Both the position numbers and the translations under genes were made by a program. This document shows, in pieces, positions 58,395 through 61,772 of a stretch of 64,000 nucleotides of DNA. Source of the DNA: Oscillospiraceae bacterium (GTDB lineage Bacteria > Bacillota > Clostridia > Monoglobales > WRAG01); NCBI GenBank assembly GCA_009780345.1, contig WRAG01000006.1, positions 547 to 64,546 on the forward strand, written 5' to 3'. Below the pieces are notes generated by a model, which had not been told where the DNA came from, ran no database searches, and saw nothing but the letters and a program-made list of their open reading frames with translations. Position 1 is the stretch's first letter. Each line of letters starts with the position of its first letter.

Positions 58395-59813
58395 TCATTT
58401 AGCGGTGAGGTCTGCGACGAATACCTCGCCGGACATTAGGCGAGGTAATAAAGTGTCGCGGAGTTCCGCAAGGCGAGCGTTTTCTGCGTTATTGTGTGCT
58501 ATTTGTTCAACAAATCCATTAAACAACCCAAATGTTTCATCATCGCAAGGCATAAACAGTTCAAAATTTTCTATACTACCTTTTGTGATGAACCTAATAA
58601 CCGAGCCTCTGAAACCCGATGTAATTTCAGAGAGGCAATGTTTGATAGCATAATATAAGAACCCTAAATGTTTTTGTTCGTTTGGTATTAAAACATAAGT
58701 GCGTTGGTAGGCTTCAAATTTACCGCTATAAACCTTGACATTGAAGTCGCCGTTTCCTGCAAGCAATATAGCGTTTGCGTCAAATGAGTAATTATCGGTA
58801 TACAAAATATTTTGCGAGCAACTAAAAAAAGGATATATCCCGCCTTTGGCAACATTGGCGTCTTTCTTGCCGGTAATGACAGGAAACCAATCACCAAGTT
58901 TGCAATTTGGCTCACGGTTTCCAAATCGTTCCGCCCATACCGCCCTTGCCATCTGTTCTAAATTATGATTTATCGCTGTGTTGTTGGCGATTTTATCGTC
59001 GAATGAAGAGAGTGTGTCGGCGACGGTGCGTTGCGTGTCGAGGTCGGGCAGCTCGATTTCATACGACAAAATTGTTTTTGGCGCAGTATGTTTTACCGTA
59101 CTTCCTGATGCGTGATTTACGATATACTTTTGATAATCCCTTGTTCGCATAATCCAATACACATATTCACTTAAAACATTATCACTATTTATAGTTACTA
59201 AACCAATACGCTGATTGTGCAAATAACGATTATCCTCCGGAATAAAAGCAGAATATCCCAATGTATCCCCTTGTTTGCTTAAATCAGTCATTGTTACAAT
59301 TAAGTCGCCTTCGTTTAGCATATAATCCTTAGGAATAGGTCCATTATAATTTTTGGGCTTGCCGAATTGAAAACCTCCGCCTATTGCAAAATTTCCGGGA
59401 GTAACTAATAAATATTCTGTTGGGGTATCACAAAAATATTCACCTTTGAAAGCGAAACCGTGCTTTATATCGCACACATCACCAAGTTTACACCTCAAAC
59501 CCAATCGCTCGCGTTTTCCCTTATATATCCTCTCATTTCCTGCGTCAATAATTTTTTTAAAACTTTCGCTAATCGCATTATAATCAATTACATCTACCTT
59601 AAACGGCAAATCACTTTCCATAAAATCTTCTTTGATTTTGCTTATAACACTATATCCGATTTTATCCTCGCCAATTAAAGCCAAATCAAGGTCGCTTGTT
59701 TCGGTATTCGTCCATTTGTAGCGCGAACCGAACGCTAACACATCATAATTTGGCGTGTGCTTTTTTATTATATTAAGTATAATTTCCATTTCAAACGGAC
59801 TAACCGCTATCAT
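58395..59813 (-). CDS. hsdS: MNT nucleotidyltransferase fused to type I specificity subunit HsdS
   Basis: N-terminal ~100 aa with GS-X10-DLD (FGSRYKWTNTETSDLD) and KVDVID; then two TRDs with conserved helices (LP..Q..DDKI..N; LAELRDTLLPRLMSGE). Confidence 0.9.
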   Translation of the reverse strand: MIAVSPFEMEIILNIIKKHTPNYDVLAFGSRYKWTNTETSDLDLALIGEDKIGYSVISKIKEDFMESDLPFKVDVIDYNAISESFKKIIDAGNERIYKGKRERLGLRCKLGDVCDIKHGFAFKGEYFCDTPTEYLLVTPGNFAIGGGFQFGKPKNYNGPIPKDYMLNEGDLIVTMTDLSKQGDTLGYSAFIPEDNRYLHNQRIGLVTINSDNVLSEYVYWIMRTRDYQKYIVNHASGSTVKHTAPKTILSYEIELPDLDTQRTVADTLSSFDDKIANNTAINHNLEQMARAVWAERFGNREPNCKLGDWFPVITGKKDANVAKGGIYPFFSCSQNILYTDNYSFDANAILLAGNGDFNVKVYSGKFEAYQRTYVLIPNEQKHLGFLYYAIKHCLSEITSGFRGSVIRFITKGSIENFELFMPCDDETFGLFNGFVEQIAHNNAENARLAELRDTLLPRLMSGEVFVADLTAK

Positions 59814-60262
59814 CGGCGTTCCTCCAACCTTTTTATAAAGTCCGTTAAGTGCTTTTCAAATTGTTTTGCAGCCACGTAAACTTCTTCAGCAATTTCTTCA
59901 TGATAAGTGTGCGATGTTTTATTACGGGCGGCATAAAAATTCCACCAGCTTTCCGGGTCAGCTATTAGCCCGCTATTGTGAGCTATGCGGAAAAGCTCGC
60001 GTTTGGGTTTTTCCGCGATGCCGCTGTCAGCGTTTATTTTAATCCAACGTTGCATTATTTTCCAGGCGCTTTCTATCGTTGTTTCAAATACTTGTATAAC
60101 CGCAGAACGCGCAAATTGATACTCAAACGAATAGTCGTTTTCATCACCTAAAAAAACTTTTGGGTCTCTCGCTTCAAGTTTTAAAGCTCTCGCTATAGTT
60201 TTTTTGAAATTTTCCGCGCACTTAACCATATCTGAAATATTTAATTTTTCATCGAATTTCAT
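59810..60262 (-). CDS. HEPN-domain protein (HI0074-like, HepT-type RNase toxin)
   Basis: RSAVIQVFE..E.AWK; RNKTSHTY = RX4HXY. Confidence 0.85.
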   Translation of the reverse strand: MKFDEKLNISDMVKCAENFKKTIARALKLEARDPKVFLGDENDYSFEYQFARSAVIQVFETTIESAWKIMQRWIKINADSGIAEKPKRELFRIAHNSGLIADPESWWNFYAARNKTSHTYHEEIAEEVYVAAKQFEKHLTDFIKRLEERR

Positions 60263-61772
60263 ACCCGATTCCTCCTAATCGTTTTTTGATTTCATTTTCC
60301 AACTCATGCGATTTAGCAAACATCCCCGAAAGCTCGCCCGTCAATCGTTTCATTTTATCGTCAAAAGGTTCGCCGTCGTCCTCTTGCTCCTCAATCCCAA
60401 CATATCGTCCGGGCGTAAGTATGAAATCTTGTTTTGCAATTTCTTCGGTGGTAACAGCGGCACAAAAACCTTTCACATCTTCAAGAGTTTCGTTGTTGAA
60501 CGCTTCAAAAGTCGCAGCGATTTTGGCAATATCTTCGTCGGTCATTTCGCGGTTTTTGCGTGAAATCATAGTTCCCATTTTTCGTGCATCTATAAATAGC
60601 GTTTTGCCTTTTTGCGTTTTGTTGCGATTAATAAACCACAACGAAACCGGAATTTGCGTTGTATAAAATAATTGCGTAGGCATTGCGACGATACCTTCCA
60701 CAAGGTCGTCTTCGATAATTCTTCTTCGAATTTCGCCCTCACCGCCACTTTGCGATGACAGCGAACCGTTTGCCAAAACCATTCCAATTTTACCATTAGG
60801 AGATAAATGGTGAATCATATGTTGTAGCCACGCAAAGTTTGCGTTACCTGAGGGCGGCAATCCGTATTTCCAACGAACATCGTCAACTAATTTATCCGCG
60901 CCCCAATCTGAAAGGTTAAACGGAGGATTTGCTAATATGTAATCTGCTTTAAGGGTTGGATGACAGTCATTGAAAAAAGTGTCGGCATTATATTGTCCTA
61001 AATCCGCGTCCAAACCACGTATGGCAAGGTTCATTGCCGCCATTTTCCAAGTTGTTGGGTTGGAATCTTGTCCATATATAGCAATATTTCTAATATTTCC
61101 TTGATGATGTTTTATAAAATCCGCAGATTGAACAAACATTCCGCCGCTACCGCAACAAGGGTCATAAACTCTGCCGTTAAACGGTTTAATAATTTCAACA
61201 AGCGTTTTAACCACGCATTCGGGCGTAAAAAACTCTCCTGCAAGTTTCCCTTCCTGCTCGGCAAATTTTCGAAGACAATATTGATAAGTTTTTCCGAGAA
61301 TATCCTGTGCGCCATTATGATCGTTCATTTTAAAGTTGGTGAACAAATCCACGACGTCACCAAGCCTACGTTTGTCAAGTTCCGGTCTTGCGAAATTTTT
61401 AGGCAAAATTCCTTTCAACTTCTTGTTTTCTTGCTCAATTGCACGCATAGCATTATCAATAACTATGCCAATTTCGGGCGAACGCGCCTCATCGCGAATA
61501 ATATCCCACCGAGCCGACGGCGGTACATAAAAAACATTTTCTGCAGTATATTCGTCAACGTCTTCTTCGAAACCATCGCCTTCTTCTCGAAGCTGATTAT
61601 ATCTCTCGTCGAATTTATCCGAAATATATTTAAGGAAAATCAAACCAAGAACGACGTGTTTATATTCGGATGCGTCAATATTTCCGCGTAGTATATCTGC
61701 GGCTTTCCATATTTTCTGTTCAAATTCAGTTATTAAGATTGATGAGTCGTTACTTTTGTTTTGTATTGCCAT
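60249..61772 (-). CDS. hsdM: Type I methyltransferase subunit
   Basis: GEFFTP, YDPCCGSGGM, ANPPFN, LTPGRYVG. Confidence 0.97.
   Translation of the reverse strand: MAIQNKSNDSSILITEFEQKIWKAADILRGNIDASEYKHVVLGLIFLKYISDKFDERYNQLREEGDGFEEDVDEYTAENVFYVPPSARWDIIRDEARSPEIGIVIDNAMRAIEQENKKLKGILPKNFARPELDKRRLGDVVDLFTNFKMNDHNGAQDILGKTYQYCLRKFAEQEGKLAGEFFTPECVVKTLVEIIKPFNGRVYDPCCGSGGMFVQSADFIKHHQGNIRNIAIYGQDSNPTTWKMAAMNLAIRGLDADLGQYNADTFFNDCHPTLKADYILANPPFNLSDWGADKLVDDVRWKYGLPPSGNANFAWLQHMIHHLSPNGKIGMVLANGSLSSQSGGEGEIRRRIIEDDLVEGIVAMPTQLFYTTQIPVSLWFINRNKTQKGKTLFIDARKMGTMISRKNREMTDEDIAKIAATFEAFNNETLEDVKGFCAAVTTEEIAKQDFILTPGRYVGIEEQEDDGEPFDDKMKRLTGELSGMFAKSHELENEIKKRLGGIGYEIR

Follow-up and report, generated by a model that had tools for sequence, protein, structure and literature searches.

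What is a gene for a ribonuclease-type toxin doing between the modification and specificity genes of a restriction enzyme, and why does its presumed antitoxin exist as part of the specificity subunit? The locus that raises this question is a type I restriction-modification (R-M) operon from an Oscillospiraceae bacterium (GenBank assembly GCA_009780345.1), read here in a 64,000-nucleotide stretch of contig WRAG01000006.1 (positions 547 to 64,546 of the forward strand), which we call the window and to which all plain coordinates refer. Four co-directional genes on its minus strand encode HsdM, an HEPN protein, an HsdS that begins with a minimal nucleotidyltransferase (MNT) domain (MNT::HsdS), and HsdR. 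An earlier note, made from the letters of the sequence, took HEPN and MNT for a toxin and its antitoxin and proposed that tethering the antitoxin to HsdS could make toxin release depend on whether the R-M complex is lost or inhibited. The analysis reported here supports, from sequence, a toxin-antitoxin (TA) type of module, finds the architecture to recur widely, and leans slightly towards a mobile TA module that was captured by the R-M operon.

All parts of a type I system are in place. hsdM, hsdS and hsdR are intact open reading frames (ORFs), and Pfam and PADLOC models match HsdM, an HsdS with two target recognition domains (TRDs) and two conserved helices, and an HsdR with a nuclease N-terminal domain and a superfamily 2 (SF2) motor. 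The fusion is a protein of 472 amino acids (aa) in which PF18765 (Polbeta, E 9.4e-11) covers residues 12-100 and PF01420 (Methylase_S, E 6.9e-25) matches two stretches of the same frame, and which also matches the PADLOC model Specificity_I (E 2.8e-66); its MNT domain passes PF01909 as well. Domain matches of this strength lie well beyond chance. The genes are tightly packed, with a 14-nt overlap of hsdM and the HEPN gene (60249-60262) and a 4-nt ATGA overlap of the HEPN gene and MNT::hsdS (59810-59813), just as the earlier note had drawn them along with their reading frames. Both the HEPN gene and the fusion gene open behind a well-spaced Shine-Dalgarno (SD) site, AGGAGG at 8 nt ahead of the ATG in the first case and GGAGG at 7 nt in the second.

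The 150-aa HEPN protein holds the HEPN families PF08780 and PF01934 (HepT-like, E 3.2e-6) only, with no N-terminal ABC-ATPase of the PrrC/RloC type, and scores 65.8 bits against TIGR01987 (HI0074), above the cut-off of 55.8. Its relatives in the Protein Data Bank (PDB) are 1WTY (TTHA0048, E 4.1e-12), the Legionella pneumophila HEPN toxin 8XDJ (E 1.8e-11) and HI0074 (1JOG, E 5e-7). The RX4HXY motif that had been read in the sequence is there as R113-NKTS-H118-T-Y120, and a HMMER alignment sets Q57, E60, R113, H118 and Y120 against Q44, E47, R98, H103 and Y105 of 8XDJ. F59, E60, H118 and Y120 are invariant in a 38-row HEPN alignment, and the R, H and Y of the motif are retained in 57, 57 and 56 of 58 HEPN sequences. 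On the antitoxin side, the GS-X10-DXD motif lies in the MNT domain and in frame with the TRDs, again as first noted (residues 29-43, G29-S30-X10-D41-L42-D43), with D77 as a further catalytic Asp; none of G29, S30, D41, D43 and D77 varies across 92 aligned fusion proteins, whose TRDs are not alignable.

The function of these residues has been studied in the closest characterised homologue, the Legionella pair lpg2920/lpg2921, for which the AMPylation chemistry cited in the earlier note is documented. According to PMC11586414, the Legionella HEPN is a Mg-dependent RNase that cuts rRNA without specificity and is toxic to E. coli. Q44 and E47, which make up its metal site, are essential for activity, R98A and H103A change the RNase activity little, and the cognate MNT adds three or four AMP groups to Y105. 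The same study describes this MNT as a weak binder that lacks the a4 helix present in its Shewanella and Aphanizomenon counterparts and does not modify HEPN at low ATP, and reports an 8-bp overlap of the two genes. The 472-aa protein of the window was modelled with AlphaFold2 (AF2) on 92 homologues, with a mean pLDDT (predicted local distance difference test) of 91.6 and a pTM (predicted template modelling score) of 0.77. In the model the MNT core runs a1-b1-b2-a2-b3-a3-b4 (residues 6-97), and its last element, the strand 93-97, leads into the linker without an a4 helix; beyond the linker come TRD1 and then TRD2, each followed by a long helix (258-297 and 425-461). A predicted complex of full-length MNT::HsdS with HEPN gave an interface score (ipSAE) of 0.00 in two runs, which is evidence neither way. 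Because the HEPN residues match those of 8XDJ and the MNT domain is modelled without a4, the pair belongs to the HI0073/HI0074 class, an a4-less, HEPN-first subclass of type VII modules.

This arrangement recurs well beyond the window. A protein search with fusion residues 1-125 only, against proteins of 259-826 aa (E<=1e-3), returned 372 protein clusters with the same N-terminal MNT region, and PF18765 and PF01420 occur together in 119 of the 120 listed; among the names listed are Desulfobulbaceae, Brocadiaceae, Spirochaetia, Brachyspira, Xanthomonas, Magnetococcales and others. When the 105-aa MNT domain served as the query of a HMMER scan, 3226 representative clusters matched at E<=1e-3, and 759 of them reached E<=1e-10. 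The best 150 of the 3226 (50%-identity representatives) include 97 proteins with an HsdS domain and 37 short free MNTs; the rest are 14 MNTs with another domain or fragments and 2 single-chain HEPN-MNT proteins.

Gene order was followed in a scan of one genome per species, which gave at least 600 pattern matches, at least 475 of them confirmed by tblastn, and from which 80 loci were taken; their ORFs were annotated in three rounds with profiles built from the window's own proteins. The loci include 44 MNT::hsdS genes in 42 loci from 42 genomes. An HEPN gene stands directly upstream of 43 of the 44, ending 2-24 nt (147 nt in one case) inside or before the start of MNT, and hsdM is upstream of 42, the other two lying at contig ends. 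hsdR falls within the fetched downstream flank of 31. Plain hsdS loci, reached through the HsdS part of the query only, have HEPN or MNT in 0 of 25 cases. A separate MNT occurs in 13 loci, which include split M-HEPN-MNT-S-R operons (L005, L019) and free HEPN-MNT pairs with HEPN first. The hosts span more than ten phyla, among them Bacteroidota, Pseudomonadota, Chloroflexota, Acidobacteriota, Actinomycetota, Nitrospirota, Thermodesulfobacteriota, Spirochaetota, Poribacteria, Latescibacterota, Binatota and Zixibacteria. With these 43 genes and the four closest metagenomic relatives described below, the recurrence of hsdM-HEPN-MNT::hsdS for which the earlier note suggested a search is established.

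Cultured organisms provide examples: on plasmid pZMOB01 of Zymomonas mobilis ATCC 10988 an HI0074-family gene, a fused S gene and hsdR overlap one another by 4 nt, Acetobacter plasmids have the split form, and pZA1001 of Z. mobilis NCIMB 11163 has a free pair. The deletion of hsdSp in Z. mobilis ZM4, which is without growth defect (PMC8432527), was considered as a phenotype of the fusion and set aside; it is uninformative on this point because pZM32 holds a plain hsdR-hsdM-hsdS operon without HEPN or MNT. Look-ups of the primers of that paper found nothing in pZMOB01.

Several loci depart from the common layout. The sole fused gene without an upstream HEPN (locus L076) has no HEPN remnant in its 280-nt gap at E<=10, and a different small ORF of no known family occupies the usual place of HEPN (L076:5704-5983). 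HEPN genes stand in tandem ahead of MNT::hsdS in L036 (576-1902; three copies, one without the motif His) and in L042 (5094-5989; two copies). L051:5965-8420 has a single ORF made of an extra MNT and then an HEPN directly before MNT::hsdS, giving two MNT domains per one HEPN, and six S subunits of 611-670 aa (P0036, P0046, P0060, P0062, P0071, P0088) apparently carry two tandem N-terminal MNT domains before the TRDs. Three hsdM-HEPN-MNT::hsdS cassettes share one locus in a Spirochaetia metagenome-assembled genome (L038, 13.6 kb); two of its MNT domains are near-identical to each other and very divergent from the rest (branch of 4.35 changes per column). An apparent HsdM::HEPN single ORF of 673 aa in the same locus was rejected as a frameshift or ORF-calling artefact and not counted: its M match breaks off at profile position 438, and the Ala/Arg-rich stretch beyond that point is of the kind usual for out-of-frame read-through in GC-rich DNA.

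Is the fusion genuine, and does it matter? The window comes from a termite-gut metagenome bin (2.05 Mb, 96% complete), and the earlier note had conceded that the fusion might be an assembly error or a one-off. In a sequencing run from a different study (X2), a single contig spans 59388-60253 without one differing letter or gap, a stretch that takes in both the MNT-HsdS junction and the overlap of HEPN with MNT; this identity across the junction rules out an assembly error, as the 372 clusters and the 43 HEPN-preceded genes rule out a one-off. A quieter objection is that an inserted TA pair merely lost a stop codon, leaving a selectively neutral fusion in which HsdS is made from an internal start or MNT dangles from it, and in which TA and R-M act independently. 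Switching between split and fused states should indeed be easy, because free MNTs end shortly after their last strand and the operon genes overlap by 4 nt. Linkers also differ in length and sequence among the fused proteins, and of 25 fused genes examined, 22 have an in-frame start codon in the linker zone, which is an ATG in 10 and comes with an SD-like site in 11. At the window junction, however, there is no in-frame ATG, only TTG, TTG and GTG with SD-like sites poorly spaced at 13-15 nt, and the AF2 model remains confident throughout, its lowest block at pLDDT 76. A neutral fusion would be expected to be rare and short-lived, whereas this one is the majority state among the best 150 relatives and is spread over the phyla listed above. 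We regard the neutral account as quite improbable.

Where the cassette came from can be read, with some caution, from its nearest relatives. A metagenome scan with the MNT-junction region as query gave 21 loci. The four most similar (60-72% identity, L092-L095) are hsdM-HEPN-MNT::hsdS operons. Fifteen others (52-68% identity) have free MNTs, and in 12 of these 15 an HEPN gene lies directly upstream with the same 4-nt overlap; of the remaining three, two are cut by a contig end. L110 showed none of the five domains. L111 and L112 are plain hsdM...hsdS operons that matched through the HsdS residues of the query only. There are no R-M genes near the close free HEPN-MNT pairs. Free MNTs end 2-6 residues (up to about 20) past a conserved ...ERIY strand, and fused MNTs run on through a basic linker of 8-15 residues into TRD1 domains of differing types, a diversity behind a constant MNT that would be expected if specificity domains are swapped.

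Trees point the same way. In an MNT-domain tree (58 rows, a short alignment and a quick method), fused and free forms are interspersed, with 10 changes by parsimony, at least 4 of them forced by well-supported branches; fused and free forms have interconverted. The window MNT groups at 99% support with two free MNTs from the species-genome set (L061, a Heliobacteriaceae bin, and L067, a Methanobacteriaceae methanogen bin), which hints at exchange across the boundary between bacteria and archaea. The HsdM tree (FastTree, 58 rows), in which plain loci were sampled through their similarity to the window's HsdS, has cassette presence switching at least 8 times, and the closest matches to the window HsdM, at 69% identity, are plain HsdMs from gut Bacteroidales, Prevotella and Treponema. 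Since relatives occur both free and fused and the cassette changes HsdM backbones, we conclude that HEPN and MNT(::hsdS) form a mobile cassette, which passes from one type I backbone to another and switches to and fro with autonomous TA pairs, and we read it as a mobile TA captured together with hsdS.

In this genome the cassette travels on a larger vehicle. An Amidase_3 (CwlD-like) gene lies in two pieces, a C-terminal one at 50968-51498 and an N-terminal one that ends at about 63297, and in genomes of the same order a single ORF of 246-255 aa matches both pieces in 4 of 5 fetched loci. Because the amidase is split, a direct repeat (CCATGCCCCG) sits at both breakpoints and related genomes have one ORF, the R-M/TA operon, the DUF4143 ATPase upstream of it and a recombinase together form an insertion of about 11.8 kb (51491-63306). 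The features are collected below. The AAA_14/DUF4143 ATPase is found in none of the 80 related loci, its only match being one ORF in each of the three profile rounds, and it lies outside the conserved cassette. Since the HSDR_N match starts at residue 41 of the listed hsdR ORF, the true start is likely the ATG at 57880, which leaves about 0.5 kb between the hsdS stop and hsdR in the window; this gap is often 0.7-3.5 kb in related loci. The small ORF in between has no homologue among the ORFs of the 80 loci. Between the recombinase and hsdR (53355-54871), about 1.5 kb holds no ORF longer than 86 aa and its GC content falls to 0.32-0.35 in parts.

Table. Features of the R-M/TA operon and of its carrier element (window coordinates; E values for the models named).
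Feature	Position	Strand	Support or remark
hsdM, type I DNA methyltransferase subunit (507 aa)	60249..61772	-	PF02384 N6_Mtase E 4.9e-108; PF12161 HsdM_N E 6.1e-30; PADLOC MTase_I E 3.4e-213
HEPN ribonuclease-type toxin gene, HI0074 family (150 aa)	59810..60262	-	PF08780 NTase_sub_bind E 1.3e-25; carries Q57, E60, R113, H118, Y120
MNT::hsdS fusion ORF (472 aa)	58395..59813	-	PF18765 and PF01420 in one frame
MNT domain, fusion residues 1-97	59523..59813	-	PF18765 E 9.4e-11; PDB 1NO5 (HI0073) E 4.3e-16
Basic linker MNT-TRD1, residues 98-105 (YKGKRERL...)	59499..59522	-	pLDDT dip to 76 in block 101-110
HsdS proper: two TRDs and two long conserved helices (258-297, 425-461)	58395..59498	-	PF01420 in two stretches; PADLOC Specificity_I; PDB 1YF2 E 8.4e-10
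87-aa ORF between hsdS and hsdR, doubtful gene	57906..58169	-	No Pfam or PADLOC family; overlaps over-extended hsdR ORF
hsdR ORF (1040 aa as listed)	54872..57994	-	PF04313 E 1.1e-43; PF18766 E 1.2e-73; PF11867 E 1.5e-87
AAA_14/DUF4143 ATPase, directly upstream of hsdM	61898..63121	-	PF13635 E 8.5e-48; PF13173 E 3.4e-28; PADLOC candidate system PDC-S01 E 2.5e-105
Large serine recombinase, far end of element, downstream of hsdR	51672..53354	-	Resolvase, Recombinase, Zn_ribbon_recom, DUF4368
10-nt direct repeat CCATGCCCCG, probable att core, left copy	51491..51500	.	Inside split amidase gene
10-nt direct repeat CCATGCCCCG, probable att core, right copy	63297..63306	.	End of amidase N-terminal piece

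For mechanism and ALTERNATIVES, the explanation we favour, with confidence slightly better than even, is that a type VII-like TA module has been captured in a type I R-M operon and its AMP-transferase antitoxin has become the N-terminal domain of HsdS. HEPN would be made first, from its strong SD site and with translation coupled to that of hsdM, as a Mg-dependent RNase with its metal site at Q57 and E60. MNT::HsdS, translationally coupled through the ATGA overlap, would then modify Tyr120 in the RX4HXY motif by ATP-dependent (poly)AMPylation and so silence the RNase; this RNase activity, tyrosine AMPylation and ATP dependence are carried over from the Legionella homologue. Because the antitoxin exists solely as part of HsdS, control of the toxin would rest on ongoing hsdS expression. 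As one mobile cassette, HEPN and MNT::hsdS could thereby stabilise themselves, the R-M operon and the 11.8-kb integrative element by addiction, provided that HEPN is toxic here as its homologue is, and failing gene expression or ATP supply would trigger an ordinary growth arrest of the TA type.

Several points weigh against this explanation. A covalent, catalytic antitoxin carried on a presumably stable 472-aa subunit fits poorly with the labile-antitoxin logic of post-segregational killing. That the fused form is the commonest among the nearest MNT relatives suggests a gain beyond co-inheritance, which capture as such leaves unspecified. An internal start in the linker may give a free HsdS. 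Finally, no model in the PADLOC library matches the HEPN protein, and the MNT domain scores 37.6 bits against the NCBIfam equivalog MntA_antitoxin (NF047752), below its cut-off of 60, so that by this profile it would not be an equivalog of MntA.

A second explanation is the coupling proposed in the earlier note. Here the HEPN RNase would be held latent on the M2S or R2M2S complex through the S-tethered MNT, much as PrrC is, and failure of the complex would abort the infection: a DNA mimic (Ocr, ArdA), an Stp-like peptide, dismantling of the complex or a drain on ATP would stop AMPylation or sequestration. The place between hsdM and hsdS is strictly conserved, with the antitoxin joined to a structural subunit and HEPN upstream of all but one fused gene, fused forms are the majority of the MNT clade, fusion or fission has recurred at least 4 times, and the catalytic residues of HEPN are conserved. 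The tandem HEPN paralogues of L036 and L042 would be expected in an arms race. Precedents exist in PrrC-EcoprrI and in the hypothesis of immunity-suicide coupling (PMC3710099 and PMC3506569), and low ATP blocks AMPylation in the Legionella homologue (PMC11586414). Against such a guard, the cassette swaps HsdM backbones (at least 8 changes) and its near relatives function as free pairs, which makes a need for specific contacts with HsdM or HsdR improbable; on the sequences compared, both facts weaken any tight, R-M-specific coupling. AMPylation is moreover a covalent change, and HEPN that already carries it would not become active again merely because the complex is inhibited; 50,697 phage records contain no phage-borne relative of MNT or HEPN, the MNT-junction region finding no match in that collection. 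A guard is thus possible and, on balance, unlikely.

A further reading does away with toxicity altogether. HEPN and MNT might be a domesticated, two-protein nucleotidyltransferase or RNase that regulates the R-M system, for example by cleaving the operon mRNA and delaying hsdR in a new host until MNT::HsdS has built up. Type I R-M systems require some establishment control. HEPN is translated before MNT::HsdS, hsdR comes last and often after the gap described above, and the Pfam name of PF08780 mirrors an older view of the family as a substrate-binding subunit. The near relatives, however, are free-standing pairs that lack R-M neighbours, a toxin is what the fully conserved RNase and AMPylation residues fit, and toxicity in E. 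coli and non-specific rRNA cleavage are documented for the closest characterised homologue (PMC11586414). This reading is very improbable and the least likely of those considered, and TA capture remains the one preferred.

How does the captured module compare with known systems? The closest are L. pneumophila lpg2920/lpg2921 (PDB 8XDJ, 8XEH, 8XEM, 8YUF) and Haemophilus influenzae HI0074/HI0073 (1JOG, 1NO5), which belong to the same families as the window pair and have in common with it the Q/E metal site, the Tyr of RX4HXY and an MNT without a4. The Legionella locus tags (HEPN lpg2920, MNT lpg2921) suggest by their order that HEPN comes first there too (PMC11586414). In both species an MNT of about 100 aa stands by itself and R-M genes have not been described alongside it, whereas in the window it is the N-terminal domain of HsdS in a type I operon. 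The canonical type VII pairs, HepT/MntA of Shewanella oneidensis (SO_3166/SO_3165) and of Aphanizomenon flos-aquae, combine an HEPN RNase with an MNT that AMPylates the Tyr of RX4HXY, and the GSX10DXD motif is common to these MNTs and that of the window (PMC4621449 and PMC11586414). In canonical type VII the MNT gene comes first and MNT is free and has a4, whereas in the window HEPN comes first and MNT is fused to HsdS. The free small antitoxin upstream of the toxin that marks type VII is therefore absent here, and the HEPN-first order is shared with the free pairs of the subclass.

Other comparisons concern toxins housed in R-M loci. PrrC-EcoprrI is alike in that the gene of an HEPN RNase belongs to a type I cluster and the R-M proteins hold the enzyme in a latent state (PMC3710099 and PMC3506569). 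PrrC has its own regulatory ABC-ATPase domain and no enzymatic antitoxin, whereas the window HEPN is a bare 150 aa whose control would fall to an HsdS-fused AMP-transferase; the two belong to evolutionarily independent HEPN families. PIN-type TA pairs (PMC5499597) and TgvAB of Vibrio cholerae VPI-2 (PMC12409362) are conflict genes that sit between hsd genes and are presumably co-transcribed with them; no component of either is described as fused to an Hsd subunit, whereas the window antitoxin is covalently within HsdS. The PIN survey of 2017 (PMC5499597) states that a direct TA-RM interaction had not been shown. The single-chain MNT-HEPN protein FhepTA, described in PMC13000451, likewise has its MNT fused to another polypeptide and acts by oligoAMPylation, but its fusion partner is the toxin itself; in the window the partner is an R-M subunit and the toxin is separate.

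HEPN genes in R-M loci and the analogy to PrrC were already known (PMC3710099, PMC3506569 and PMC3632139), and PMC3710099 describes R-M-associated HEPN domains that fuse to nucleases, helicases and ATPases. The searched text of the literature, including PMC3710099, PMC3632139, PMC2701414, PMC3506569, PMC13000451 and PMC12839542, describes no MNT::HsdS fusion, figures and supplements being outside the search. The legend of Figure 5 of PMC3710099 defines 'RM_TRD', and that figure or Additional file 1 may depict such an operon. The general ideas of HEPN proteins in R-M loci and of TA pairs in type I operons are thus known, and for an MNT fused to HsdS no description was found in the text of these sources.

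HEPN RNases in R-M loci have earlier been taken as support for the coupling of immunity to suicide. In hundreds of protein clusters of the present family the antitoxin is built covalently into HsdS, and a physical link between TA and R-M is therefore directly testable with a construct of three to four genes; free pairs, split operons and fused operons serve as natural controls within one family. With the layout recurring in many phyla, a TA pair may be physically wired into a restriction enzyme. Such S subunits are named in annotation merely 'restriction endonuclease subunit S' or 'nucleotidyltransferase domain-containing protein'. That the R-M complex is itself the antitoxin, with HEPN silenced only while an intact, ATP-supplied complex is present, is a tentative claim that we hold to be doubtful. 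If it is true, AMPylation would cease when anti-restriction DNA mimics act, when the complex is lost or when runaway translocation drains ATP, and a translation-stopping RNase would be set free; the cassette would be a guard analogous to PrrC, of independent origin, spread over more than ten bacterial phyla and toggling with free type VII pairs.

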